Positions 2,475-44,200 of a stretch of 64,000 nucleotides of DNA are shown in pieces (the first letter of the stretch is position 1; each line of letters starts with the position of its first letter). The translations under genes were made by a program, and so were the position numbers. The notes under the pieces were generated by a model. The model was given only the letters and a program-made list of their open reading frames with translations. It ran no database searches and was not told the origin of the DNA. Origin of the DNA: an uncultured Acidobacteriota bacterium (GTDB lineage: Bacteria; Acidobacteriota; JAAYUB01); assembly GCA_964436005.1 (NCBI GenBank), contig CAYTBK010000007.1, forward strand, positions 1,340 through 65,339, in the 5' to 3' direction.

Positions 2475-3245
2475 TTATCCCCGCAGCCGTTCCATGCGCT
2501 CCAGGAACTCCCCCGCCAGGGCCCGGTACGCCAGGGCCCCGGGCGACGAGGGATCGTGGCGGAAGATGTCCACCCCGTAACGGGGCGACTCACCCAGGCG
2601 CGCGTTGATGGGGATCTCGGTATCGAAAACCTCGGGGCCGTAAAAATCGCGGATCAGCTCGGTCATCTCCCGCGTGGCCCGAATGCGGCGGTCCACGATG
2701 GTGAAGAGGATGCCGGACCCGCGGGCGTTCAGGCGGACTTTGCCGTCCAGCCGCCGGAGCGTCTCCTTGAGGTTTTCCAGCCCTTCCACCGCCAGGTACT
2801 GGGGCGTCAGGGGAATCAGCAGATAGTCGGCCGTCGCCAGTACGTTGATCATGAGCAGGGAGAAAGAGGGCGGCGAGTCGATGACGATGAAGTCGTACTC
2901 GTCCCGCAGCGGCTTGAGGGCCTTGCGCAGGCGGCGGTCCCACTTGCGGTCCCCGGCCAGCACGACGTCCGTGTCGGCCAGGTGGGGGGCGCCCGTAAGC
3001 AGTTGCAAACCGGGGACGCCCGTCTCGCGGAGGGCTTCCTGGACCCCGATCCGTCCCTCGAGCACTTCCGCGAGGGACGGGTTGAGTTCGCCTCGGGGGA
3101 TGCCCAGGGTCCGGGACGCCGAGGCCTGGCCGTCGGCGTCGACGAGGAGGCAGCGCTTCCCGAGGGCCGCCAAAGCCGCGGAGAGATTGACCGCCGTGGT
3201 CGTCTTGCCGGTCCCCCCCTTGTTCATGGCCAGCCCGATGATCAT
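2475..3245 (-). CDS. ParA/Soj family ATPase (orphan, no parB nearby)
   Basis: Last 256 aa of the listed 616-aa ORF: MIIGLAMNKGGTGKTTT (deviant Walker A), LLVDADGQ, IVIDSPPS, IPLTPQYLAVEGL. ATG at 3245 overlaps the aguA stop (ATGA); GGAGG RBS upstream. Confidence 0.9.
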   Translation of the reverse strand: MIIGLAMNKGGTGKTTTAVNLSAALAALGKRCLLVDADGQASASRTLGIPRGELNPSLAEVLEGRIGVQEALRETGVPGLQLLTGAPHLADTDVVLAGDRKWDRRLRKALKPLRDEYDFIVIDSPPSFSLLMINVLATADYLLIPLTPQYLAVEGLENLKETLRRLDGKVRLNARGSGILFTIVDRRIRATREMTELIRDFYGPEVFDTEIPINARLGESPRYGVDIFRHDPSSPGALAYRALAGEFLERMERLRG

Positions 3246-4306
3246 GCGGTGCCGACCTCCGCGGGTTCCTGCTGGGTGACGCAGTGGATTCCGCCGTATC
3301 CGAACACGAGGTGGGCCGCCGGGACCTGGACGATCCGGCGCGTGGGAAAGGCCCGGGACAGAATGGCCGCCGCTTCCCCATCGGCGGGATCGTCGAAGGC
3401 CGGCAGCAGGACGGCGGCATTGCCGACGTAGAAGTTGGCGTAACTGGCCGGCAGGCGGCGGTTCTCCTCCGGATCGACCAGCGCGGCCGGCAGGGGCAGG
3501 GGGACGATGTCGAAACCCTCCCGGCCCAGGCCTTCCGCGAGCAGGCGGTAGTTTTCGTCCAGCACGGGGTGGTTGGGGTCGTCGCGGTCCTGGCAGACGC
3601 AGCACAGGACGGTCTTTTCCCCGGCGAAGCGGGCGAAGTCGTCCACGTGGCCGTCGGTGTCGTCCCCCTCGATCCCGGAATTGAGCCAGACGACCCTGTC
3701 TGCGCCCAGGTTTGCGCGCAGGACGCCCTCCACCTCCGCGGCCGACAGGGAGGGGTTCCGGTTGGGGTTCAGGAGGCACTGCCGGGTGGTCAGGACCACC
3801 CCGGCGCCGTTGACGTCGATGGATCCCCCCTCGAGAACGACCCCGGGCCGAAAGGCCTCGACGCCGGCCCGGCGGACGACCTCGTCCCCGGCCGCATCGT
3901 CGGCCATGAGGTCGGCGTACTTTTCTCCCCAGGCGTTGAAGCGCCATTTCACGCAGGCCTTCCGGCCGGAAACCCGGTGGAGGAGGAACGAGGGGCCCCA
4001 GTCGCGGATCCAGACGTCCACACTGGGGAAACGGTGGAAGCGGACGCGGTCCGACCGCAGTTTCGTTCCGAGCAGGCCCCGGACGCGCTCCTCGGCCAGG
4101 ACGTCGTCGACGACGATATCCACCCGCTCGCCTTCGCTGAGCGCGCCGACCATGGCGGCGTACGTCTGCTCCACGTGCTCCAGGATGCCCGCCGGGAAAG
4201 TGATAGGGTTCTTGGGCCAGGCCAGCCAGGTGGCCTCGTGCGGGGCCCACTCGGCCGGCATATGCCAGCCGAGCGAGGCGGGTGTGGCGCAGTTGGTTTC
4301 TTGCAT
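3242..4306 (-). CDS. aguA: Agmatine deiminase (PPAD family)
   Basis: MPAEWAPH, WIRDWGP, EGGSIDVNG, DTDGHVDD, GGIHCVTQQEP with catalytic Cys; adjacent to aguB. Confidence 0.93.
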   Translation of the reverse strand: MQETNCATPASLGWHMPAEWAPHEATWLAWPKNPITFPAGILEHVEQTYAAMVGALSEGERVDIVVDDVLAEERVRGLLGTKLRSDRVRFHRFPSVDVWIRDWGPSFLLHRVSGRKACVKWRFNAWGEKYADLMADDAAGDEVVRRAGVEAFRPGVVLEGGSIDVNGAGVVLTTRQCLLNPNRNPSLSAAEVEGVLRANLGADRVVWLNSGIEGDDTDGHVDDFARFAGEKTVLCCVCQDRDDPNHPVLDENYRLLAEGLGREGFDIVPLPLPAALVDPEENRRLPASYANFYVGNAAVLLPAFDDPADGEAAAILSRAFPTRRIVQVPAAHLVFGYGGIHCVTQQEPAEVGTA

Positions 4307-4399
4307 TCTGCCCTCGCGATAACAATAAAATGAAATTGGAAGCCGACCGTCTGGGCGCCCCGGCCGAGAATGGCTTCCGGCCGACAGGCGGTTACGGTT

Positions 4400-5263
4400 T
4401 CATTCCATTCGGGACGACAGCATGTCGTACACCTCGGGCCTCCGGTTGTGGAAGAACCGCCAGCCTTCCCGCACTTCGCGCCCGTGCGCCAGGGAAACGT
4501 CCGCCAGGGCCACCTGTTCCCCGGAACCGGCCCGGACGAGCACCTTGCCGAACGCGTCGGAAACGAACGAACCGCCCCAGAAGGACATGCGGTCCTCCAC
4601 GCCGACCCGGTTCACCGCCGCCACGACCATCCCGTTGGCGATGGCGTGCCCGCGCATCACGTTCTCCCAGGCCCGGTGCCAGTTGCCCTCTCGCTGGCGG
4701 TGTCCGCGAACGGTTCCGATGGCGGTGGGGTAGAAGACCATCTCGGCGCCCTGCAGAGCGGCCAGGCGGGCCGCCTCCGGGTACCACTGGTCGTAGCAGA
4801 TGAGGACGGCCAGCCGGCCGGCCGGGGTGTCGAAGACCCGGATGCCCCCGTCGCCGGGCGCGAAGTAGTTCTGCTCGTAGAAAAGGGGGTCGTGGGGGAT
4901 GTGAACTTTCCGGTACTGCCCGATCGCCCGGCCGTCGGGGCCGAAAATGACGGCGGTGTTGAAATTGCCCGCCGGGTGGGCTTCCCAGACCGAACCGGCG
5001 ATCAGGACGATGCCGCGCTCCCGGGCCAGGGCGCTGCAGGCGTCCGTGGCCGGCCCCGGGATGCTTTCCGGGGCGACGGCGTCCTGCCGGGCGTACTGGG
5101 GGAAGTACCGCGTGGAGAACAATTCCGGCAGGCAGACGACGGTGGCGCCGCGTTCGGCGGCGGCACGGGCCAGTTCGATGGCGCGGGCCACGTTTTCCCC
5201 GGGGCGTTCGGACATGGCCATCTGCACCAGCCCCAGGCGAATCTTTTGTTCCGTCATGGTCAC
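4400..5263 (-). CDS. aguB: Carbon-nitrogen hydrolase, likely N-carbamoylputrescine amidase
   Basis: Nitrilase triad motifs LPELF, YRKVHIP, LICYDQWYPE; next to agmatine deiminase. Start may be the second Met (5257). Confidence 0.85.
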   Translation of the reverse strand: MTMTEQKIRLGLVQMAMSERPGENVARAIELARAAAERGATVVCLPELFSTRYFPQYARQDAVAPESIPGPATDACSALARERGIVLIAGSVWEAHPAGNFNTAVIFGPDGRAIGQYRKVHIPHDPLFYEQNYFAPGDGGIRVFDTPAGRLAVLICYDQWYPEAARLAALQGAEMVFYPTAIGTVRGHRQREGNWHRAWENVMRGHAIANGMVVAAVNRVGVEDRMSFWGGSFVSDAFGKVLVRAGSGEQVALADVSLAHGREVREGWRFFHNRRPEVYDMLSSRME

Positions 5264-5311
5264 CTCAAAGACGGGAGATCGCGGGACACCCGCGGTACGG
5301 TGGCGGCCTCT

Positions 5312-5342
5312 ACAAACGAACGGCCGGGACGAGTCCCGGCCG
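5312..5342 (-). terminator. Probable intrinsic terminator
   Basis: 9-bp GC stem (CGGCCGGGA / TCCCGGCCG) followed on the minus strand by TTCGTTTGT, just after the stop at 5367. Confidence 0.5.
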
Positions 5343-5366
5343 GAGGAGCCACGATGAAAAGACGGG

Positions 5367-6170
5367 TCACACTTCCTGGATGCGTTTGCGCAGGGCGGCC
5401 CGGATGCTGTCCAGGTCGCGCTTGTAGATCAGGCTCATGACGTACAGCTCGTTCACGAGGAATAGCGGGATCAGGCTGCACTCCAACAGCAGCACGCTGA
5501 AGAACCGCGGGGCGCCCTGCAGCCGCGCGAAGTTCTCGGTGTTGGCCACGTGCCGCACTTTCAGGATTTTGGAACGGGCGTAGGACAGCTTGCGTTCCTG
5601 CAGCTGAATTTCGGGCTGGAACGCCAGCAGCGAACGGATGCTCTCCTTCATGAAAGGCTGGGACTGCGCGAACGCCTCCTCGCGGAACTGTATGAAGATG
5701 TCGTGCATCTCCTTGAGCCGGTCCACCTGCGGGTCGATGATGTACTGTTTCTCCTTGGCCGCTTTCCAGTGATTCAGGGAGTTGGTGTAGTTGTATTCGA
5801 AACGCTTCAGGGCGAAGGCGACGTCGGCGTTCCGGAGGGCCTCGTTGAACACTTCCAGGCAGATGGAATCGAAATCGGCCTTCTCGAAATTGTCGTGGTA
5901 GACGTTGACGGAAGTTTCGATGGCCGTTCCGCCCTCCACGGCGTGGACTTCCATGGCGTACACGTTGTTGAGGTCCATGTTGAATCGGTTGTGGAGGCGC
6001 AGGCGCAGCTGCAGGGGGGCATCCTCCGCGGCGACGTCGCTGTCCTTCTTGATCTCGCGGCTGAGACTGGTGTCTATTTTGGCGCCGAGGTCGCCGAAAC
6101 GATATAGGGACATGGCATTGTACACGATACCGGCCAATGAATCGTCCTGCATCTCGATGAAATCTTGCAC
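5367..6170 (-). CDS. Hypothetical protein (267 aa)
   Basis: Coding-like composition. GTG at 6170 preceded by GGAGG; the listed start at 6260 falls inside a sigma70-like promoter. No family recognised. Confidence 0.7.
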   Translation of the reverse strand: MQDFIEMQDDSLAGIVYNAMSLYRFGDLGAKIDTSLSREIKKDSDVAAEDAPLQLRLRLHNRFNMDLNNVYAMEVHAVEGGTAIETSVNVYHDNFEKADFDSICLEVFNEALRNADVAFALKRFEYNYTNSLNHWKAAKEKQYIIDPQVDRLKEMHDIFIQFREEAFAQSQPFMKESIRSLLAFQPEIQLQERKLSYARSKILKVRHVANTENFARLQGAPRFFSVLLLECSLIPLFLVNELYVMSLIYKRDLDSIRAALRKRIQEV

Positions 6171-33424: not shown

Positions 33425-34857
33425 TCAGCGTGCTGGCGTTTGTTTTCATCCTGGGCATCATGATCTTCCTTCATGAACTGGGGCATTTTCTGGCCGCACG
33501 GGCCTTCGGGATCCGGGTGGAGACCTTCTCCCTCGGGTTCGGCCGGCGGCTCTGCGGTTTCAAGCGCAACGGCACCGACTACCGCATTTCCATGATCCCG
33601 CTCGGCGGGTTCGTCAAGATGGCCGGGGAGCACTTCTCCGAAGACGCCACCGGCGATCCGGGCGAGTTCCTTTCCAAGCCCCGCTGGCAGCGGGCCATGG
33701 TGACGGCGGCGGGTCCGCTGATGAACCTCCTGTTTGCCGTCTTCCTGCTGTGGGTCAACTACATGGTCGGCGTGGAAGTCCCGGGTTTCTACCAGGCGCA
33801 GCCCCGTGTCGGGCTCGTGGGGGGAAACTCCCCCGCGGCCGGGAAAGGGCTGGAGACCGGCGACTACCTGGTAGCGGTGAACGGTTCGGAGATGACCACC
33901 TGGTCTGATTTTGTCATGGCCTCCGTCTCCTTCTCCAACCAGAGCGTTCCGGTGACCTTTTCCCGCGACGGGGTTTCTTTCCAGCGCCAGCTGCATTTCC
34001 GGGAAACGGAGACGGACCCTTCGGAAATCACCGGAATCTACCCCTTCATCCCCATCCATGTGGAGGACGTGGCCAAAAACTCCCCCGCCGAGCGGGCCGG
34101 TTTGCGCGCGGGGGACGAAATCGTGTCGGTGACCGACGGGCCGTCGGTGCAGCGGGGGTTCCTGGCCGTGTTCCGACTGATCCGGGACAATGCCGGAACG
34201 GTCGACTACGGACTGGTCGCCGACGGCCTCTTCCGCCTGTTCACGCCGGCGGCGCCCGGATTCGGTGCCGCCGATCCCGCCTGGGACAGACAGCGGAATC
34301 CTTTTTCCGGGATCACCGAGGGAAGGCGCCTACGCGCGGCTGTCAGGCGAGGCGGCCAGACCTGGGCCGTGGATTTCGTGCCCGACGCCGTGAACCGGAA
34401 CGACGGTCGGGGCCTGGCCGGTTTCCAGCTCGATTTCCGCCTGGTCACGGAGCGCTTCGGCCCCTGGCTGGCCCTGAAGCGTTCGCTCAAGGACAACCTG
34501 CGGTTCGTCGCCATGACCTACCGGGTTCTGGCCAAGGTGGTCGGGGGCACCCTGTCCATTCGCCAGTTCTCGGGCCCCATCGGCATCGCCCGGGCTTCCG
34601 GCGACGCGGTGAAAACAGGCAACCTGGTGGTTGTCTTCAATTTCATGGCCCTCATCAGCATGAACCTGGCGGTGCTGAACCTGTTGCCCATCCCGGTCCT
34701 GGACGGCGGGATGCTGTTCTTCCTGCTGCTGGAGATGGTCTTCCGGCGCGATATCCCCCTGCGGTTCAAGGAGCGGGCGGTAACGGCCGGCATGCTCCTG
34801 CTGCTGGCCTTCATGGCCGTCGTCATCTTCTTCGACGTCTACAAGATGTTCAAATAG
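33421..34857 (+). CDS. rseP: RIP metalloprotease RseP (site-2 protease with two PDZ domains)
   Basis: LHELGHF (HExxH), IPLGGFVKM, AGPLMN, NLLPIPVLDGG; conserved position after dxr. Confidence 0.95.
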   Translation: MISVLAFVFILGIMIFLHELGHFLAARAFGIRVETFSLGFGRRLCGFKRNGTDYRISMIPLGGFVKMAGEHFSEDATGDPGEFLSKPRWQRAMVTAAGPLMNLLFAVFLLWVNYMVGVEVPGFYQAQPRVGLVGGNSPAAGKGLETGDYLVAVNGSEMTTWSDFVMASVSFSNQSVPVTFSRDGVSFQRQLHFRETETDPSEITGIYPFIPIHVEDVAKNSPAERAGLRAGDEIVSVTDGPSVQRGFLAVFRLIRDNAGTVDYGLVADGLFRLFTPAAPGFGAADPAWDRQRNPFSGITEGRRLRAAVRRGGQTWAVDFVPDAVNRNDGRGLAGFQLDFRLVTERFGPWLALKRSLKDNLRFVAMTYRVLAKVVGGTLSIRQFSGPIGIARASGDAVKTGNLVVVFNFMALISMNLAVLNLLPIPVLDGGMLFFLLLEMVFRRDIPLRFKERAVTAGMLLLLAFMAVVIFFDVYKMFK

Positions 34858-35003
34858 CGGCATGGCGACCGAAGAGTATCCAGAGCGCTGACCGCCTCCC
34901 CGCGGACGGACCGGCCCGACCGGGGGAAAGTTCTGGGCCGAACGTGTCCGCGGAGGAAACGATCGGCCTTCCTCAAGTTCATCCTGTTCATCAATGTTAA
35001 ATA

Positions 35004-35474
35004 TTAAATTTTCAATGTGCTGCGCGCTGCCAGCAAGGCCCGGATCCGGCGGGCCAGGCGGTCGGCCAGGCGGCGCACGGCGGACTCCACCGGCGGGGAG
35101 AGCGATTCGCGCAACTCTTCCGGCGGCCATATGGTGACAGCGAAAACCTCCGTTTCGGGGAAGGGGGCCACCTGGCCCAGTGCGCGCAAGATGCCCAGCA
35201 CCCAGGCCAGGTCGTTCTGGTGCAGGGAGGCGGCGGCGCGGGAAGGCGTGGGGACGCGCCGGGTCACCCGCCCCGGTGTCCTGCCGCAGACGGCGTCCAC
35301 GAGAAAGAACCGGGGGGCGAGCGGCAGACTGTCGGCCAGGGCGAAGAGGTCGCCGTCCAGGGTCTGCAGGAGCAACCTCGACTCGCCGGGAAAGGAAGCG
35401 GCGAGTTCCGCCACGACGGCGGGACCGGCGCCGTCGTCCCCGGCCAGGGGGTTGCCGACGCCGATCACGCCCAC
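35004..35474 (-). CDS. Hydrogenase maturation protease (HycI/HoxW-like)
   Basis: IGVGNPLAGDDGAG, LVDAV, SLHQ; last gene of the hydrogenase run. Start uncertain (GTG at 35474). Confidence 0.88.
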   Translation of the reverse strand: MGVIGVGNPLAGDDGAGPAVVAELAASFPGESRLLLQTLDGDLFALADSLPLAPRFFLVDAVCGRTPGRVTRRVPTPSRAAASLHQNDLAWVLGILRALGQVAPFPETEVFAVTIWPPEELRESLSPPVESAVRRLADRLARRIRALLAARSTLKI

Positions 35475-35490
35475 GGCGAAGGGGTGCGGC

Positions 35491-36207
35491 TCAGTAGAGC
35501 TTGATCTCGTAGCGACACCCCTTCTCGCCGCGCTCTGCCTGGACCAGGCGAGGGCGCACGTTGGCCATGCGCGAAAGGTACCCGGCCAGGTAGTTGTAGA
35601 AAAGCACGCACAGTTCCTGGCCCAGGGGGATGTTTTCCTTTCCGCACAGGTCGCGGACGAAGCACTTGCCGACGTCGATGGTCAGATGGTCGCCCGCCGC
35701 GGCAAAGGTGAGATCCCAGGTGGGGGCGAACTGCTCGCGGGCCAGGTCCAGCACCTCGGCGAAGTCCTTGGGCTGGCGGTAGCGGGGCAGTTGGCCCGCC
35801 AGCGTCCGGCCCGCCATGGTCCCCACGGCCGGCAGGCCGCCGCCGAGAGTCTGCTTGAAGACGGAGGCCACGGACAGGAGCCGCACCCCCAGGTCGTTCA
35901 GCGCCGATTTCAGTTCGGCCTCGTCGGACATCACCCGCTGGTGCGTCTTCTCCTCCCCCAGCAGGCGGGTGGCCAGGTCCAGGGCGTAGGGGTCGTGGTA
36001 GAAGTTCTCCGAATGAACCACCTCGCCGTGATCGATGGCCCCGGCCGGGCAGATCTCCGAACAGCTCAGGCAGCCGAAGCACTCGAGGGGTTTCGCTACT
36101 GTCGGCACCCGCTTTTCTTCGTCGAAGGCGAAGACGCCGGTCCGGCAGGTCTCCACGCACAGCGTGCAGCCCACGCAGGCTTTTTCGTCGATCTGGATGG
36201 AAACCAT
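35491..36207 (-). CDS. 2[4Fe-4S] ferredoxin fused to a V4R-like C-terminal domain
   Basis: CVGCTLCVETC and CFGCLSCSEICP. The C-terminal CFVRDLC...LC...YLAG...GCRYEI pattern resembles the V4R fold. Confidence 0.8.
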   Translation of the reverse strand: MVSIQIDEKACVGCTLCVETCRTGVFAFDEEKRVPTVAKPLECFGCLSCSEICPAGAIDHGEVVHSENFYHDPYALDLATRLLGEEKTHQRVMSDEAELKSALNDLGVRLLSVASVFKQTLGGGLPAVGTMAGRTLAGQLPRYRQPKDFAEVLDLAREQFAPTWDLTFAAAGDHLTIDVGKCFVRDLCGKENIPLGQELCVLFYNYLAGYLSRMANVRPRLVQAERGEKGCRYEIKLY

Positions 36208-36210
36208 GCG

Positions 36211-37608
36211 TCACCTCCTGCCGATGCGGCGGACCGTCTCGCCGCGGCGCCGGACGACCACTTCCAGGGGCATCCGCCCCAGGGCGTGCGTGGCGCAGGC
36301 CAGGCACGGGTCGAAGCACCGTATGACGAACTCGAGTCCGTTGAGGAAGCCTTCGTCGGAATGGCGGCCGTACAGGGACTGGGCCGCCGCCGTCACGGCC
36401 CCGTCGATGGCGTCGTAGTTGTTCTGCGTGGCCACCACCAGGTTGGCGGCGGTCAGCCGGCCGGCCGCATCGGCCGTGTAGTCGTGGACCAGGATGCCGC
36501 GCGGCGCCTCGATCAGCCCGATGTACCGGCCGGCCCGCGGGGCGGGGTCGGCGGTCTTGACGGGGCCGCCGCCGAGCTGCTTCGGGATCTCGGCCATCCT
36601 CTCGGCGCAGTGAACCATCTCGATCAGGCGGGCCGCGATGAAGTCTACCACGGACACCTTCTCCCGGATTTTTGTCCGGAAGGCCTGCAGCAGGCTGTCC
36701 GCCTTCGGCGTGCCCAAACTGTCGTTGGCCTGCAGCCGGGCCAGGGGGCCGACCAGCTGGAGGCGGTCCTCCAGGCCGCGGATGCGAACCGACTTCATGT
36801 ACGATCCCGGCATGACGGATTCCACGATGTTCTCGCCGTACGCCGAGGCGGGGAAGGTCTTCAGCCGGGCCCCGCCCGTGTCGACGACCCGGACTTCGCC
36901 GTGCAGGAAGTCCACCCGGCCGTCCTGGGAAACCGCCATGTTCAGGAAGGGCAGCTCGGTGGACTGGCGGATCTCTTCCACGGACTCCAGGCGGGAACGC
37001 ACCACTTCGCCCAGGTCTTCCAGCAGGGTGAGGGCTTCCTCTCCCCAGGCACCGATGCGGGACATCCGGTCCTCGGGCGGGCGGTACGACATGCCGCCGG
37101 GCACGGCCGTCACCGGGTGGACGCCGCGCCCGCCGACGGCCTCCACGGTGAGCTGGCCGAGAGTCCTCAGCCGGAGCGCTTTTTTGGCGGCTTCCGGGTT
37201 CGCCTGCAAAAGCCCGAACACGTTGCGGTCGGCGGAGGGCGATTCGATGCCCAGGATCAGGTCCGGGCCGAGCAGGAAAAAGGTGCTCAGGGCGTGGGAG
37301 TGGAGGATGTGCCCGGCGTACAGGAGGTCGCGCAGCAGCCGGGCGTCCGGCGGAACCTCGACGCCCAGGCCGTTCTCGATGGCCTCGACGGAGACCAGGT
37401 GGTGGGCGGCCGGGCAGACGCCGCAGATACGGGCCGTGAACTGGGGCATCTTGAAGAGTTCCATCTTCTCGATGAACTTCTCGAAACCGCGGATTTCCAT
37501 CACCTGGAGGTGGGCTTTCTCCACGGCCCCCGCGTCGTTCACGTCCAGCAGGACCTTGGCGTGGCCTTCGATCCGGGTGACGGGAGTGAGCGTGATCCGT
37601 TTTCCCAT
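36211..37608 (-). CDS. mvhA: [NiFe]-hydrogenase large subunit, group 3c (MvhA)-like
   Basis: TRIEGH, L1 RICGVCPAAH, EAPRGILVHDY, L2 DPCLACATH followed by a 24-aa cleavable extension (ALGRMPLE...). Confidence 0.92.
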   Translation of the reverse strand: MGKRITLTPVTRIEGHAKVLLDVNDAGAVEKAHLQVMEIRGFEKFIEKMELFKMPQFTARICGVCPAAHHLVSVEAIENGLGVEVPPDARLLRDLLYAGHILHSHALSTFFLLGPDLILGIESPSADRNVFGLLQANPEAAKKALRLRTLGQLTVEAVGGRGVHPVTAVPGGMSYRPPEDRMSRIGAWGEEALTLLEDLGEVVRSRLESVEEIRQSTELPFLNMAVSQDGRVDFLHGEVRVVDTGGARLKTFPASAYGENIVESVMPGSYMKSVRIRGLEDRLQLVGPLARLQANDSLGTPKADSLLQAFRTKIREKVSVVDFIAARLIEMVHCAERMAEIPKQLGGGPVKTADPAPRAGRYIGLIEAPRGILVHDYTADAAGRLTAANLVVATQNNYDAIDGAVTAAAQSLYGRHSDEGFLNGLEFVIRCFDPCLACATHALGRMPLEVVVRRRGETVRRIGRR

Positions 37609-37620
37609 GGTTGTTCTCCT

Positions 37621-38553
37621 CTATCCTGCCGTTTCGGGCTGCGTCGGGGCGGTCCACTCGCGCAGCTCGACGGCGGGCTTGCGGTACATGACGGGGGAAG
37701 CCATCGCATAGGCGTAGAACGTCTTGGCGTCTTCCTCGATGTAGCGCCTGACCTCCTCGGCGGGGATTCCACAGAGCATCTCCATCCGTTTGGCCACCAG
37801 GGTCCGGATGTCCAGGTGCGGTTCGGCCACGACGTCGGCCGAGGGGCCGTTGCATCCCGTGCAGGCGACGCCGACTTCCGGGCAGGGGGCCAGGCAGCGA
37901 TTGAGGGTGACCGAACCCAGGCAGACCACGCCCTGGCTCAGGAAGCACTTCTCCGGATCGGGGGCCGTGACCGCGCCCCGGCGAAGGGGCGTTCCCGGGC
38001 TCTTCACCATCTTCCGCCGGCAGTCGGAGCAGACCGGTTTGCCGGTGGAAACGGCGTCCTTGTTCCCCAGGAACCGCCGGACGATGGTGGCGATGAAAGC
38101 GGGATGCGGCGGGCAGCCGGGCAGGAAGGCGTCCACGGGAACCAACTCGTCGATGGGGACGACGCTCTTCTCCAGCGGCACGGCGTCGGCGTCCGGGCGT
38201 TGCCCCGGCACGTTGGTCGGCCCCTGCGAATAGGCGGTATCCAGCACCTGGTCCTTTTCGTACAGCCAGCCCAGGCCCGACGGCCCGCCGTAGACGGCGC
38301 AGGAACCGAAGGCCACCAGCGTCTTGACGCTGGCCCGGAGCCGGCGGAGCATCTCCCGGTCGTGCTCGCTGCGGACGGCGCCCTCCACGATGCCCAGGTC
38401 GGCCTCGGGGAAGCCCTTTTCGTCCATCAGGACGGGAAGCCGGACGAAGACCACGTCTTCCACCAAGGCCAGAAGTTTCTCGTGCAGGTCTACCATCGCC
38501 ACATGGCAGCCGGAGCAGCCCGACAGCCATTCCGTCGAGATTCTGGCTTTCAT
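37621..38553 (-). CDS. mvhG: [NiFe]-hydrogenase small subunit, MvhG-like (cytoplasmic)
   Basis: Start MKARISTEWLSGCSGC at 38553 (ATGA overlap). VEGAV, FGSCA, PGCPP, plus extra Cys clusters CSDC, CFLSQGVVCLG and RCLAPC...CTGC. No Tat signal. Confidence 0.9.
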   Translation of the reverse strand: MKARISTEWLSGCSGCHVAMVDLHEKLLALVEDVVFVRLPVLMDEKGFPEADLGIVEGAVRSEHDREMLRRLRASVKTLVAFGSCAVYGGPSGLGWLYEKDQVLDTAYSQGPTNVPGQRPDADAVPLEKSVVPIDELVPVDAFLPGCPPHPAFIATIVRRFLGNKDAVSTGKPVCSDCRRKMVKSPGTPLRRGAVTAPDPEKCFLSQGVVCLGSVTLNRCLAPCPEVGVACTGCNGPSADVVAEPHLDIRTLVAKRMEMLCGIPAEEVRRYIEEDAKTFYAYAMASPVMYRKPAVELREWTAPTQPETAG

Positions 38554-39038
38554 GATTTCTCCTCCCAGGTCATTTCCTTCAGGCAGGCGTTGGGGCCGGC
38601 CTGGATGATCTCCAGGCCCACCTTGTGCCCGGGGAAGATCTTCTCCATGGCGCCGGCGAAGACGCCATGGGCCATCTGGCACAGGGAGAGCTTCTGCTCG
38701 TGGGCGAAGCGGAACAGGGCGTTCCGGATCATGCAGGTTCGGAAGACCACGCGCATCTTCCTCGTCCCGCCATCCACCTGCACCAGTTCGGCGCTCTCTC
38801 CCTGGAAAGGCTCGAAGTCCCACCGGATACCCCTCTCGGCCAGTGCGGCGCGCAACAGCTTCAGGGCCTCGACGGGGTCGGCGGTGGGCGCGACGTTCTT
38901 GACCGCCTCCAGGCCGAACTTCTTGCCCGCGTTGAAGCTGATGGACATGCAGCCGCGCCCCAGGTGCTTTTCCGCACCGTGGGCCAGGGCGCCCAGGAAA
39001 TAGGAGACGTCGTGCAATTCTTTCCGCAACGGTTCCAT
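38550..39038 (-). CDS. Stand-alone V4R-like domain protein
   Basis: Start MEPLRK at 39038. CMIRN...LCQMAHGVFAG...GPNACLKE matches the Cys spacing of the ferredoxin-fused domain. Confidence 0.7.
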   Translation of the reverse strand: MEPLRKELHDVSYFLGALAHGAEKHLGRGCMSISFNAGKKFGLEAVKNVAPTADPVEALKLLRAALAERGIRWDFEPFQGESAELVQVDGGTRKMRVVFRTCMIRNALFRFAHEQKLSLCQMAHGVFAGAMEKIFPGHKVGLEIIQAGPNACLKEMTWEEKS

Positions 39039-39147
39039 ACATCCCCCTGCTGACGTGTTTGGCGTCCACCGCCGCAAACGGGGTCCGCGGGCGGCCGACG
39101 GGATCTTGGATTCAGGAGACCTCGGGCGTGACGCCGGCGGCGGGACG

Positions 39148-39510
39148 CTACATGGCCCGCTCGATCTCGGCCGAGCGCTTGCGGAGCTGGTACCGGATGT
39201 TGCCCAGGTTGGCGCCGGGCGCCGCCACCACGGCCAGGATCGAATCCGTTCCCAGCAGCGAGATGACGATGATGCCGTCCTTGTACTCGAACAGCCCCTG
39301 GGTGAGCTGGCCGATCCCCAGTTCCTGGCCGACCACCTCCGACGAACCGACGCCCGTCGAGATGACCGCGCCGACGGCGTCGGCGTCGACTTTCCCCCCC
39401 CGGGATACCGCCTCGATGACGAAACCGTCCCGGCTGACCAGCACGGCCGTATTGATGCCTTCCACGATAATCAGTTCCTTGAGCAGGTCCGTCAGCGTCA
39501 TGATGCTCAT
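39148..39510 (-). CDS. Roadblock/LC7 (MglB-like) protein
   Basis: 120 aa; EGINTAVLVSRDGFVIE, LFEYKDG, LAVVAAPGANLGNIRY. Confidence 0.88.
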   Translation of the reverse strand: MSIMTLTDLLKELIIVEGINTAVLVSRDGFVIEAVSRGGKVDADAVGAVISTGVGSSEVVGQELGIGQLTQGLFEYKDGIIVISLLGTDSILAVVAAPGANLGNIRYQLRKRSAEIERAM

Positions 39511-39514
39511 GTTG

Positions 39515-40957
39515 TCAAACCTCCACCTTGTCTATGGTATTCAGGATTCTTGTCAAGAGGGCGCCGGCCTGGGGCGCCCCTTCCATCCGTTCGGCCGGGA
39601 TGGTGGTCGTTGCGCCGGTGGCCAGGACGAAAAGGGGGATATCCAGGGAAGAGACATGGGTGCGGAAGTCTTCGAGGTGGCGCTCGTCTTCCGGGCCGGC
39701 CACGGCGAAGATCGTCGCGTCGGTGGTGCCGAGCATGCGGTCCCAGAGGAAAGAGAACCGTTTGTCGCCCCGGATGGAGAAGAGATGGAAGACCCGGTCC
39801 GACCAGGCCAGCTTGAGGAAGCTCATCCCGCCCATGGTCGCTCCCCGCGGGGCTTCCAGGCCGCAGGCGCCGGCCAGGGTCTGCAGCACCACCCGGCAGT
39901 CCTCCTCGCGTACGCAGGCCACCAGCAGGCGGACGGGGCGGACCGGCAGTTGCAGGATGTCGTTCCCGACCTGGGGCTCGATGTGCCCTTTCCGCACCAG
40001 TTTGGCCACGGTGACCGCCACGCGGGACTGGGAAAGACGGGTCGTCTCCTGGATTTCGGGAAGGTTGACCTTGCCCTTCCGGATGGCCCGGATCACCGCC
40101 GTGGTGTCGGGGTCGTCCTGCCCGTCGGGAACGCTGTTCAGCTTCAGCGGCTGGATGTCGGCGGGAACGAATTCCTGGCTGTCTTGCCTCTCGTCGTAGA
40201 GTCGGATGGTGTCCATCAGCATGAAGCTGATGGGTTTGGCGATGGCTCCCTCGGGCACGGCCCCGGGGGAGAACCGGAAATGCCCCTCCCGCAGGGCGAG
40301 CATCTCCATCAGGGCGTCTTCGCCCGTGATGTCGCGGAAGACGGCGTCCATCAGCATGGGGCTGCGCACCGTCAGCTTGCCATCGGCGTCTTTCGTCCGG
40401 ATGTGGAGAATCCCTTCCCGCATGGTGTAGTCGAGGAACTGGAGGATGTCCATCAGCGACACCTCTTCCAGGTATCCGCCCAGCGCCTCTTCCCTCGGCC
40501 GCCGCGAAAGTTTGCGGGTCAGGGACTCCAGCCGGGCGACCAGTTCGTCCGGGTCGAAGGGCTTGGGCAGGTAATCGTCCGCCCCCGAGCGGAGGCCGGT
40601 CACCCGGTCCCGGGCCGTGCCCAGGGCGGAGAGGAAGAGGAAAGGCGTGTCGCGGAACCCGTTCATGGCGCGGAAGGCCTTGCAGAAATCCAGCCCGCTC
40701 ATGCCGGGCATCATGATGTCCGAAACCACGATGTCGGGTTCCGCCTGTCGCGCCGCTTCCAGGCCGGCGTACCCGTCCTTGGCGCAGACGACGCGGCAGG
40801 GCGATCCGCTCAGGCCGCTTTCCAGGATCTGCTCCACCAGGGAGAGGAGCCGGGGGTCGTCGTCCACCACCAGGATCACCCAGGGTTCCTGCTCCGGCCC
40901 GTTCGGCGTCCCGGCCTTGGGGAGTGAGTTGTCCTGCCTGGGTGCTGATTTCGCCAT
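39515..40957 (-). CDS. Response regulator: REC, DUF4388/PATAN, winged HTH, degenerate MglA-like GTPase domain
   Basis: VVDDD...SDIMMPG...LSA...KPF (intact receiver); GYLEEVSLMDILQFL...GEDALMEML...EGHFRF (DUF4388); wHTH-like LPEIQETTRLSQSRVAVTVAKLVRKGHI; LFSIRGDKRFSFLW (G3-like) without a P-loop. Confidence 0.85.
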   Translation of the reverse strand: MAKSAPRQDNSLPKAGTPNGPEQEPWVILVVDDDPRLLSLVEQILESGLSGSPCRVVCAKDGYAGLEAARQAEPDIVVSDIMMPGMSGLDFCKAFRAMNGFRDTPFLFLSALGTARDRVTGLRSGADDYLPKPFDPDELVARLESLTRKLSRRPREEALGGYLEEVSLMDILQFLDYTMREGILHIRTKDADGKLTVRSPMLMDAVFRDITGEDALMEMLALREGHFRFSPGAVPEGAIAKPISFMLMDTIRLYDERQDSQEFVPADIQPLKLNSVPDGQDDPDTTAVIRAIRKGKVNLPEIQETTRLSQSRVAVTVAKLVRKGHIEPQVGNDILQLPVRPVRLLVACVREEDCRVVLQTLAGACGLEAPRGATMGGMSFLKLAWSDRVFHLFSIRGDKRFSFLWDRMLGTTDATIFAVAGPEDERHLEDFRTHVSSLDIPLFVLATGATTTIPAERMEGAPQAGALLTRILNTIDKVEV

Positions 40958-41014
40958 GCGCTTCCTCGACCTGCCGACACCCGTTGCCGTTCCGATCATC
41001 CATGAACTGCTCAC

Positions 41015-41043
41015 ATTTTAAAGACAGAAGCATTGACTTGCAA
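41015..41043 (-). promoter_or_regulatory. Sigma70-type promoter TTGCAA-17-TAAAAT for the hydrogenase-signalling operon
   Basis: Hexamers at 41038-41043 and 41015-41020; 17-nt spacer counted. Confidence 0.65.
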
Positions 41044-41254
41044 TGAATTTGTTCACAAATGCAGGTTGTTCTTCCGCCCGAGCCGAGGAGGGCAAAGCGG
41101 TTACCCTGAAAAGCGGGGGTTTTGGGCCAGCCCGCCCCTGGCCAGTGAAGTTGCATCTGCCGGGGAAAGCGGGTACCATTCCCCTTTTCCGTCGCCTTGC
41201 CGCCGGGGCCCGGCGACTCCCGGTCCCGAATTCCCGCGAGGAGGGTTTGCCGTC

Positions 41255-44200
41255 ATGTGGATTGTGTCCTGGCCCCGATTGGCGCTATTGTGCCTGGTTC
41301 TTTCCGTGTCCTGGTCCGGCCTGGCCCGGGCCGGCGCTCCCGTGCCGGCGGCGGAGGCAGGCATTCTGCTGCCGAATTCCGGCTTCGAAGAGGACGGAGG
41401 GGCGGGGCAGCCCGCCGGCTGGGCCCTGGCGCCTTCGTCCGGCGGTGCCGCCGGCGCACTCGCCCGCAGCGACGGAGGGGCGCACGGCGGCAAGGCGTGC
41501 CTGGCCCTGCGACACGCCGTTCCCGCCTCCACCACCGTGCAGTCGGCAGAAGTGCCGCTGGAAGTGGGGCACCTGTACCGCCTGAGCGGATGGATCCGCA
41601 CGGAAAAGGCGTTCACGGACCCCGGACAGCGGTACCCCACGTCCCTGCCCGCCTGCCTCGGCATGGCCTCCTTCCCCTTCACCAACCACTCGCCGGCGGT
41701 GGGCGGCGACTCCCCCTGGCGGGAGGTCAGCGTGCTCTTCATCGCCACCCGGGGCAAGGACCGCGTGCAGCTCCACCTGGGCCGGAACGGCGCCTCGTCC
41801 GGGACCGCCTGGTTCGACGACCTCCGGCTCGAGCCGGTGGAGAACGTCGGGGAACTGGTGCCCGCGCAGACCGCCCGCTGGTTCGGCCCCGCCTATCGCT
41901 ACGACGACCGGGGCTGGATCTTCGTCCACATCCAGGGCGAGCCCTACGCGCGGGGTTACCAGTTCGGCTACCTGCTTGGCGAGGAGATCGCCGAGTACGC
42001 CCGCAAGCTGTCGGTCCGGCAGAACGCCCAGGACCCCGCCGCCGGCTGGGAGATCCTCCGGCTGATGACCGACGCCCTGATGTTCCGGCGTTACGAGCCG
42101 GAGTATCAGACGGAAATGAAGGGCATCGCCGACGGGGCGGCCAAGAGCGGCGCCCGGATCGGCACGCGGGCCGTGGACGCGCTGGACATCGCCGTGCTCA
42201 ACTCGGTGGTGGACCTCGGGCAGCTGCGGGACGCGCTCCCGAAAACCCGCACCGCCCTCACCGGAATCAATTTCCTGAAGAACGAGGACGAACTCCAGGT
42301 GCGGGAGAACAACCACAAGTGCTCGGCTTTCGCCGCCACGGGTTCGGCCACCGCCGACGGACGGCCCGTGTTCGGGCAGCTGTTCATGTGGAACGGCTAC
42401 CTGGGCGTGCACTGGGACGTTCTGCTGGACGTGCAGCCCGCCCGGGGCCACCGCTTCGTCATGCAGACCTTCCCGGGGGGCATCCATTCGGGGGCGGATT
42501 TCTACATCAGCGACGCCGGACTGGTGGTGGGGGAGACCACGGTGGGCCAGACCCCCTTCCACGACGGCGGCACCCCCCAGAGCAACCGCATCCGCAAGGC
42601 CATCCAGTACGCCTCGTCGGTGGACGATTTCGTGAAGATCATGACGGACCGGAACAACGGGCTCTACACCAACGAGTGGCCCTTCGCCGACGTGAAGACG
42701 GGCGAGGTGGGCATCCTCCTGCTGGGGACGGAGAAGTGGCGGCTGTGGCGCTCGTCGGGGAAGGACTTCCCGGCCGGCCTGACGGATTTCTACTGGTGCA
42801 ACAACAATGCAAAGGATTTGGAGGTGCGGAAGGAGTACGCCGCCTCGCCGGACAACGCGCCCTGCGACCTGGCCTTCCGCCCCTGGAACCGCGACCTGGC
42901 CCTGGTGGATTTCTACCGCCGGGAAAAAGGGAAGATCGACGCCACGGCCGCCGTCGACTTCTGGGCCACTTCCCCAGTCAACCGGCCGCACGCCTGCGAC
43001 GGCAAGGTGACCACCGGGGAGATGGCCGACCGGCTGGTGTTCCTGGCCCACGCCGGCAAGACCACCCTGCGGGAGAAGTTCGTCGGCGGGCGCTTCGTCG
43101 CCGACCTGCCCGGGGCGCAGCCCCACCTGTCGCTCGGCTACTCCACGGCCAGCCCGGTCTTTCTGACGGAGCGCCTGCAGGCCGCCCACGCCGCCGCCGG
43201 CGAGAAACCGGCCGAGGAGAAGGCGCCGGAGACGGACCTGGCGGCCGTTTCCGAAGTCTCCACCGTGGACAGGCGCCTGCTCTGGCAGAACACAATCGTG
43301 CCGGCCACGCCCGCGGAAAACTGGTTGAGCGCCGGTTCCGCCGCCTACTGGCGGTTGCTCCAGGACATGCCCAAGGAGGGCAGGGAGGCGGCCCCCTGGC
43401 TGCGCGACCAACTGGAGGGCATCCGCAACGCCTGCCTGTACACCATGGACCGGGAGGGCGACCTGCCGCCCCTCTCCGCCACCCTGCGCTTCGACCGCTA
43501 CGGCGACTACCAGATCTCCCGGGTCAAGGGCACTTTCGCCCTGCACCAGCTCCGGCTGATGCTGGGCAACGCGGCCTTCTTCCGGATGATGGAAGCCGTG
43601 CACGCCGAACTCGCCGGCCACACCGCCACCACGGAGGACTTCCTGCGGGCGGCGGAGGCGGCGGCGGGCCAGCCGGTCCGGGCGCTGGCTCTCCAGTGGC
43701 TGGAGCGGGCCGGGCTGCCGGACCCGGCGGTGGAGGCAGAGGCGGCGGAGAAGAGCCCGGGCAACTGGGAAGTGGTGGTGAAGGTGCGCCAACAGGGCCA
43801 GCCCTGGCGCCTGTTCGGCGCCGTGGACATCGAGGGCCAGGGCAAGACCTGGCGCCGGCCCTGCGAAGTCGACGGCGGGGAAACCGTGCTGACCTTCACC
43901 GTGCCGGAGCGGCCCCTCCGCGTCCGCTTCAACGCCGGGGCCGACTTCCCCGTGGTCTGCGGGGAGTTCTACACCCTGGGCAGCTTTTTCGAGGACTTCC
44001 AACACACCCGCATCGTGTACGGCACCTCCCGGGAGATCGAGGCCAACCGGACCCTGGCCGGCCGCTGGCAGGAGACCGTCGCCGACGTGTTCAGCGAGGT
44101 GTTGCCCCCCCTGGTCAAGGACTGCGAGCTCCGCGAAGCGGAGCGGGCCTCCTGCGACCTGATGGTGCTGGGGCAGGCGGAGGACAACACCCTGACCGCG

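Follow-up and report, generated by a model that had tools for sequence, protein, structure and literature searches.

As judged from sequence profiles and a structural model, the C-terminal domain of a response regulator from an uncultured Acidobacteriota bacterium is a real homologue of the G domain, confidently modelled as Ras/Arf-like, that has lost the P-loop and the G4 and G5 motifs. The gene, here called gene A (protein P0001), lies in a stretch of 64,000 nucleotides (contig CAYTBK010000007.1, positions 1,340 to 65,339; hereafter the window), and the domain is referred to as the pseudo-GTPase (psG) domain. The alignments strongly support its descent from an MglA/CvnD-type small GTPase with the ancestral G3 motif T-P-G-Q-x-R-F. 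It is also strongly supported that gene A heads one operon, which encodes a Roadblock protein, two V4R/Bet3-like three-cysteine domains and an Mvh-type [NiFe]-hydrogenase. An earlier note on this DNA had described a P-loop-less, MglA-like domain and proposed that it is kept as a phosphorylation-gated docking site for a Roadblock dimer. What the note saw in the sequence was confirmed in full. Its structural reading (fold, homology and loss of motifs) stands; its functional reading is plausible and partly supported, and needs to be reframed around a combination of PATAN, Roadblock, V4R and hydrogenase proteins. The continuation of the operon into a V4R/Bet3-like protein and the hydrogenase was absent from that note.

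Searches with the domain by itself returned little. Residues 335–480 of gene A gave no match in Pfam, a word-indexed search for homologues of the C-terminal region returned only the query, and the single sequence matched Arf marginally (E = 0.65). HMMER, run exhaustively against 1.84 billion representatives (E ≤ 1e-3), yielded 14 proteins: the query, 12 relatives and an internally repetitive protein of 559 amino acids (P0009) that was excluded as probably spurious. The full-length relatives share with gene A the architecture REC–PATAN–wHTH–X, in which wHTH stands for winged helix-turn-helix. A profile built from 19 psG sequences gave 144 matches in the PDB (best E = 1e-5); every one of the 60 listed is an Arf/Arl protein, an Arf-like GTP-binding protein or a G-alpha subunit. 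The alignment spans b1 through b4 and places the family motif F-T-D-E-x-x-A opposite the P-loop GLDNSGKT.

The AlphaFold2 model of the domain, computed from the family alignment (pLDDT 92.3, pTM 0.88), has the element order b1-a1-b2-b3-a2-b4-a3-b5-a5 and is predicted to have the alpha/beta fold of G domains with the b2–b3 hairpin. A Foldseek search of the PDB with this model gave 698 matches at E ≤ 1e-3 (best E = 8e-6); the top 50 consist almost wholly of G domains from GTPases, chiefly Arf/Arl, Ras, Rab and Sar1, and the best matches have TMq values of 0.55–0.66. By hhalign, the psG family aligns over 103 columns (93.7%, E = 1.9e-7) with a P-loop-bearing GTPase of 162 amino acids encoded by a neighbour gene in the cluster of one relative, L004 (KIVVFGKGEAGKST...HLYGTPGQARF), and with the MglA of the same genome (64%, E = 6.7e-5). 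These two hhalign results bear out the MglA/CvnD-like reading of the G3 region given in the earlier note, and the agreement of the PDB profile, hhalign and Foldseek argues that the resemblance to GTPases is not due to chance. The outcome that the note had named as a refutation, a C-terminal domain without a Ras-like model, did not occur.

The motif GxxxxGK[ST] is not found anywhere in the psG domain of gene A, and the two strings quoted earlier for the P-loop and G3 regions are located where they had been placed (LLVACVREEDCRV, residues 344–356; HLFSIRGDKRFSFLWDRMLGTTDATIFAV, residues 391–419, window 39787..39701). At the site where the P-loops GLDNSGKT and GKGEAGKST of P-loop-bearing GTPases align, the window copy reads C-V-R-E-E-D-C. 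Subfamily A, which includes the window copy, carries L-F-x-F-T-D-E at this position and is devoid of a P-loop throughout; in subfamily B the loop has degenerated to G-T-D-R-D-S-R-N, and N-T-D is left of G4. A functional P-loop is thus missing, by loss or degeneration, from all of the approximately 35 relatives found, a conservation of the loss that the earlier note had proposed to check. In G3 (DxxGQ or TxxGQ in active enzymes) the glycine is nearly invariant and the catalytic glutamine is replaced by D or E, the family motif being [SFL]-x-R-G-[ED], which reads S-I-R-G-D in gene A. Neither a G4 [NT]KxD nor a G5 SAK motif is present in the domain, in which the b5–a5 region is short.

Conservation was measured over 21 subfamily A sequences, in bits per column. 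It peaks at 3.4–3.6 bits in the G3 loop and alpha2 (R-G-[ED]-K-R-F-S-F-x-W-E) and is lowest, at 1.7 bits, in the region of the former G4, alpha4, b6 and G5. As read from these alignments, the nucleotide-base side of the domain has decayed and the switch II face is under selection. Because the whole P-loop, G4 and G5 have been lost, canonical GTP binding or hydrolysis by the domain as aligned and modelled is almost certainly impossible. With G1, the G3 glutamine, G4 and G5 all lacking, gene A does not qualify as an active GTPase, and psG, with the G-domain fold kept and the G motifs lost, is a candidate member of class i of the pseudoGTPases, which neither bind nucleotide nor act as catalysts. 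We consider it very improbable that the domain still binds a nucleotide or another phosphate ligand non-canonically, as a switch rather than a dead scaffold. The near-invariant G3 glycine, the conserved K-R that follows it and the G-x4-S-R-N and N-T-D remnants of subfamily B would suit such a role, but in subfamily A, the window copy included, the P-loop is deleted rather than substituted, with a link of only two residues between b1 and a1 in the AlphaFold2 model, and there is no Lys/Ser-Thr pair, switch I Thr, NKxD or SAK.

The gene that follows encodes a Roadblock/LC7 protein (P0002; Robl_LC7 49.7 bits, cut-off 23). As stated in the earlier note, it begins 4 nt after the end of gene A (stop codon TGA at 39517–39515, ATG at 39510); its Shine–Dalgarno sequence, GGTGGAGG, sits within the end of gene A, and the two genes are probably translationally coupled. 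P0002 falls far short of the MglB equivalog model NF052242 (19 bits, cut-off 200), has the P-loop-less domain as its neighbour and is 23% identical to the genome's own MglB (E = 2e-6). The whole genome contains two Roadblock genes, the window copy and an mglB on another contig (C9), encoding 166 amino acids, which lies side by side with a canonical mglA (GPGLGGKT, TVPGQ, NKRD) at L008: 3785-4375 and 4400-4900 on the minus strand; that pair adjoins anti-sigma-factor-like genes.

In the MglA–MglB complex, the interface consists of b2', b2, b3 and alpha2 of MglA, with a stoichiometry of 1:2 (PMC3199381). We propose that the dead G domain retains this b2–b3–switch II–alpha2 face, by which MglA meets the MglB dimer, and would offer the Roadblock dimer a place to dock that needs no nucleotide and stays permanently 'on-like', linking the PATAN regulator to a Roadblock/V4R/hydrogenase assembly. 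Judged from sequence, model and analogy, such a dock has about an even chance of being the function of psG. It is favoured because the MglB-binding face is kept, because Roadblock genes accompany the domain mostly where no active G domain is encoded and because a Roadblock domain can take its place (see below).

The psG family is real and very rare and, apparently, undescribed; it has no Pfam or NCBIfam model. Only two of the 401 sampled genomes of the phylum encode it, both from one genus; a survey of 185,579 species representatives yielded four loci, and metagenomes yielded 15. The contigs of P0008 and P0014 are too short for gene context; the genes of subfamily A can be sorted by context into three classes. 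In class I (the window, L001 and L007) the regulator is followed by one or two Roadblock genes, a 160-amino-acid three-cysteine protein and an Mvh-like hydrogenase. In class II (L004/5, L023–25, L013 and L022) it is followed by a conserved cysteine-rich protein of 168 amino acids of no known family and then, on the contigs that are long enough (L004/5, L023–25), by two Roadblock paralogues, after which L004/5, L023 and L024 encode a histidine kinase of approximately 960 amino acids. Class III (L011/12 and L027–36, from an NC10-like lineage) couples the regulator to IorAB/PaaK. One or two Roadblock genes thus come after the psG gene in the window, L001, L007, L004/5, L023, L024 and L025, that is, in two of the three context classes, mostly without an active GTPase in the same operon; within class II an active small GTPase is encoded in L004 only.

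Several observations weigh against a dock for the Roadblock dimer. Roadblock genes are lacking in class III and beside the subfamily B regulators (L006), which have a hybrid kinase, a receiver and an EF-G-like gene as neighbours, so that Roadblock adjacency is recurrent, not universal. The window copy of psG departs from the consensus at several positions that are otherwise almost invariant (FTDE to CVRE, ADF to MSF, WEP to WDR). The domain is also the fastest-evolving part of the regulator: between two congeners it is 42% identical (62% in b2–alpha2), as against 60–70% for REC, PATAN and the winged helix, 87% for the Roadblock protein and 89% for the V4R-like protein. Identities of this kind are not what a tightly co-evolving interface would be expected to show. 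In addition, the Roadblock protein of the window has 62 homologue clusters, most of them 52–77% identical, and a Roadblock–V4R–hydrogenase cassette without psG was found in six of the eight homologue loci read, all in other phyla (L016/17, L018/19, L039, L040; L020 is too short to judge the cassette). The cassette being widespread without psG, the Roadblock protein does not need that domain.

It is therefore possible, though we hold it to be less than probable, that PATAN is the Roadblock partner and that psG is a slowly decaying, lineage-specific appendage or binds something else, such as the V4R-like protein, the hydrogenase or a second psG copy. A PATAN protein stands beside Roadblock in all seven hydrogenase cassettes with full context and psG in three of them, and the PATAN–MglB neighbourhood has already been published (PMC4316618; bioRxiv 2021.06.11.447907). 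Since Roadblock, PATAN and hydrogenase occur together without psG, psG occurs without Roadblock and psG evolves fastest, PATAN has at least an equal claim to be the partner. Against this stand the purifying selection on switch II/alpha2 across approximately 21 sequences from distant lineages and the class II operons, which keep psG with two Roadblock paralogues and usually no further G domain. A third point comes from L018, where a Roadblock domain (Pfam Robl_LC7 2e-5) is fused to the C-terminus of a REC–PATAN regulator, at the position of psG; this fits, and is more easily explained by, a C-terminal module that engages free Roadblock proteins.

The cassette being widespread with PATAN and usually without psG, its conserved core is PATAN, Roadblock, V4R and hydrogenase, with psG as a rare C-terminal accretion that is elsewhere replaced by a fused Roadblock domain. 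L018/19 and L040 carry two Roadblock genes and, divergently, a kinase with a REC–PATAN regulator of approximately 360 amino acids. In L016/17 and L039 a PATAN-only protein is encoded immediately upstream; the divergent genes (approximately 2900–6000) are those for a further PATAN protein, an ATPase of ParA/MinD type and an uncharacterized protein of 181–185 amino acids; in this PATAN-only cassette, an NTPase of another class may take the switch role. Two candidates for further psG domains were rejected (hhalign probability 0.2%): the C-terminal regions of the PATAN-only proteins and the 181-amino-acid neighbour in L017. The same Roadblock subfamily is also found in a hydrogenase-free cluster of PATAN, MglB and Arf-like genes (L038:2153-7357), which encodes a REC–PATAN protein, an MglB-like protein of 159 amino acids, an Arf-like GTPase of 193 amino acids, a PATAN protein, a DnaA-like ATPase and an RdxA_C protein. 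MAFFT repeatedly set the N-terminal half of PATAN (P0001, approximately residues 165–215) on the N-terminal half of Roadblock (residues 5–50), the patterns being SLxDILQFL..ReGiLhi...G.l.v..g.l.dA and L.eLLkeL..veGi..avlvsrDGfviea, respectively; this overlay of sequences may reflect a common fold or be artefactual.

The order of REC, DUF4388 (PATAN) and a wHTH-like segment that the earlier note read in the N-terminal part of gene A was recovered with Pfam, the third element weakly (MarR_2, residues 288–328, E = 0.0014, under the Pfam cut-off). The start of the gene, an ATG at 40957 with the Shine–Dalgarno sequence GAGGAAG 5–11 nt before it, is backed by the N-terminus of the homologue P0017 (55% identical). 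In the receiver, D33 and D34 (the acidic pair), D80 (the phospho-acceptor), S110 and K132 are retained; with D80 and PF14332 above the cut-off, gene A is a PATAN-domain response regulator.

The probable winged helix raises the question of whether gene A is mainly a DNA-binding regulator of the hydrogenase operon, with the winged helix as its output and psG as an oligomerization or co-regulator-binding domain that tunes the contact with DNA, which we regard as unlikely. Gene A is the first gene of the operon, its helix-turn-helix-like segment is conserved (65% between congeners) with weak matches to MarR, ArsR and Rrf2 regulators, and REC-like proteins with a wHTH are coupled to group 3 MglA (Wuichet and Sogaard-Andersen). 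However, every wHTH match is below threshold, those of the family profile in the PDB included (HlyU, MarR and AdcR, E = 0.02–0.9); the identical architecture stands beside unrelated genes (IorAB/PaaK, EF-G-like), and PATAN, encoded near MglB/MglA, is known to act as an output domain that binds proteins (bioRxiv 2021.06.11.447907).

Gating of Roadblock binding by phosphorylation of the receiver, as the earlier note proposed, is a plausible conjecture, given the intact receiver and the kinases of the class II and L018-type loci. As that note observed, the window operon is free of kinase genes; the nearest HATPase_c domains on the contig lie at approximately 26.6 kb and 55.4 kb of the window, and with none in the operon the kinase for this regulator must be unlinked. 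More speculatively, D80 would be phosphorylated by an unlinked kinase, altering the presentation of PATAN, the winged helix and psG and coupling the state of the hydrogenase, or the redox state, to an output that could be transcription of the operon through the winged helix or an interaction mediated by PATAN. A bolder reading, which we find doubtful, is that PATAN, Roadblock, V4R/Bet3 and the Mvh-type hydrogenase form an undescribed H2- or redox-sensing pathway assembled from parts of G-protein regulators. In this lineage the place of the GTPase would have been taken by an MglA-derived domain free of nucleotide, and the switch would be set by the redox or ligand state of the hydrogenase and V4R proteins and by phosphorylation of the receiver, not by GTP; the result would be a G-protein-like signalling complex without a guanine nucleotide.

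Like MglA–MglB of Myxococcus and Thermus and like CvnD of the actinobacterial conservon, the window locus combines a G-domain fold with an adjacent Roadblock gene and PATAN proteins nearby. The G3 region of psG follows the MglA pattern, [TS]-x-x-G-x and then R-F (compare HLYGTPGQARF of the L004 GTPase and HLYTVPGQ of the genome's own MglA), but psG lacks the P-loop, the catalytic Gln (D/E instead), the intrinsic Arg finger context, G4 and G5, and is fused to REC–PATAN–wHTH, whereas MglA is free-standing. The parts of the conservon CvnA/CvnB/CvnC/CvnD are mirrored in class II loci (histidine kinase, Roadblock, wHTH, G domain). The window itself does not hold a conservon (kinase, Roadblock, DUF742 and active MglA-like GTPase): Roadblock is the only one of these components present as such, and the Pfam search gave no DUF742 match. 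With the PatA-type regulators (PatA, PixE, PixG) gene A shares REC and PATAN, and MglA/MglB homologues are often encoded near them. It differs from this type, and is not a strict member, in the order of the domains (REC then PATAN, against PATAN then REC in PatA), in the added wHTH and psG and in its context, a hydrogenase rather than type IV pili or chemotaxis.

To our knowledge, pseudoGTPases have been documented mainly in eukaryotes. There, class i members such as the AAGAB N-terminal domain, CENP-M and the p190RhoGAP domains keep the G fold, with the G motifs lost, as a protein-interaction module (PMC12490416, PMC5593906). Unlike these, psG is bacterial, MglA/CvnD-derived, part of a response regulator and paired with Roadblock, and its nucleotide-free status is predicted. 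It would be a clear bacterial pseudoGTPase, with a traceable origin and a candidate partner encoded next to it, and a simple system in which to study the role of a G domain once nucleotide switching has been lost. The Rag GTPase–Ragulator and TRAPP/longin–Roadblock guanine nucleotide exchange factor platforms of eukaryotes and Asgard archaea also combine a small-GTPase fold, Roadblock and Bet3/V4R (PMC10933270). The window locus differs from them in having no active GTPase, in being unrelated to membrane trafficking and in its tie to a cytoplasmic Mvh-type hydrogenase, and the likeness is one of parts, not of a demonstrated mechanism. The presence of these three parts in one bacterial operon is also of interest for debates about the prokaryotic origin of such eukaryotic platforms of GTPase regulation. 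The literature searched contained no report of a response regulator with a P-loop-less G domain attached and none tying PATAN, Roadblock or V4R proteins to a hydrogenase, nor a description of the widespread cassette that joins PATAN and Roadblock signalling, V4R/Bet3-like domains and a cytoplasmic [NiFe]-hydrogenase.

The coordinates of the features are given in table 1. The promoter-like site upstream of gene A, TTGCAA-17-TAAAAT, is the sole sigma-70-like match in 34800–41300, and a scan of the minus strand from gene A to the maturation-protease gene at the far end found no terminator-like site. The V4R/Bet3-like protein was recognized by fold: in Foldseek, the best matches of its AlphaFold2 model (pLDDT 83.8) are TRAPPC3/Bet3 and the sensor domains (V4R type) of PoxR, MopR and DmpR (E approximately 1e-4), and the family profile found nothing among the PDB sequences. 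The match to the MopR/PoxR fold suggests a structural zinc site in the three-cysteine domain. Some relatives of this domain give weak matches to Pfam ATC_hydrolase.

Table 1. Features of the gene A operon in the window and of related loci.
Feature	Position	Strand	Evidence or remark
Promoter-like site TTGCAA-17-TAAAAT, upstream of gene A	41015..41043	-	consensus match only
Gene A (P0001)	39515..40957	-	480-amino-acid response regulator: REC, PATAN, wHTH-like segment, pseudo-GTPase domain
REC domain, residues 28-143	40529..40876	-	Pfam Response_reg 9e-26, 90.6 bits
PATAN/DUF4388 (PatA_N), residues 161-257	40187..40477	-	Pfam 2.5e-15, 57 bits, above cut-off
Probable winged-helix segment, residues 282-329	39971..40114	-	kept across family; sub-threshold in all libraries
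Predicted pseudo-GTPase (psG) domain, residues 335-480, 146 amino acids	39518..39955	-	AlphaFold2, Foldseek, profile against PDB, hhalign
P-loop position, residues 344-356: LLVACVREEDCRV	39890..39928	-	alignments and AlphaFold2 model
G3 remnant and switch II/alpha2, residues 396-409: RGDKRFSFLWDRML	39731..39772	-	best-conserved block of family
Roadblock/LC7 (MglB-family) protein P0002, 120 amino acids	39148..39510	-	Pfam Robl_LC7 3e-13
V4R/Bet3(TRAPP)-like protein, 162 amino acids, three invariant Cys (C102, C120, C152)	38550..39038	-	AlphaFold2 and Foldseek
[NiFe]-hydrogenase small subunit, MvhG/VhuG-like	37621..38553	-	Oxidored_q6 1.6e-26; VhuG 1.4e-62
[NiFe]-hydrogenase large subunit, MvhA/VhuA-like, group 3	36211..37608	-	PDB 7t2r_D 1.4e-87; MvhA 5odc_F 5.8e-86; VhuA 1e-79
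2x[4Fe-4S] ferredoxin fused to second three-Cys V4R-like domain	35491..36207	-	Fer4 families; paralogy to 162-amino-acid protein
Hydrogenase maturation endopeptidase	35004..35474	-	TIGR00072 8.9e-20
Divergent regulators of ~360 amino acids, histidine kinase before each	L018:3431-4519; L040:4603-5679	-	L018 REC-PATAN-Roadblock; L040 REC-PATAN matches
Class II Cys-rich protein, copies	L004:9411-9917; L013:6276-6755; L023:3766-4296; L025:6459-7013; L022:1536-1667

The cysteine-rich protein of class II (DPIKCALWGMLVGNIENMGILP...HPLCLVHKG...GCRS) is 160–185 amino acids long, has approximately 70% identity between copies and no Pfam match, and always comes after the class II regulator. Homology between it and the V4R-like protein of class I was considered and rejected, BLAST and hhalign both being empty. 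Class III regulators are always followed by IorA/IorB (indolepyruvate:ferredoxin oxidoreductase) and a PaaK-like ligase, and an Fe–S protein of approximately 476 amino acids is encoded divergently before the regulator (L011, L012, L027–L036); this is a second redox-enzyme context for the psG regulator. The subfamily B regulators (L006:8001-11526; GTDRDSRN, INTDP remnant) lie among a hybrid kinase, a single receiver and an EF-G-like GTPase of 688 amino acids, the gene for which begins 8 nt downstream of them.

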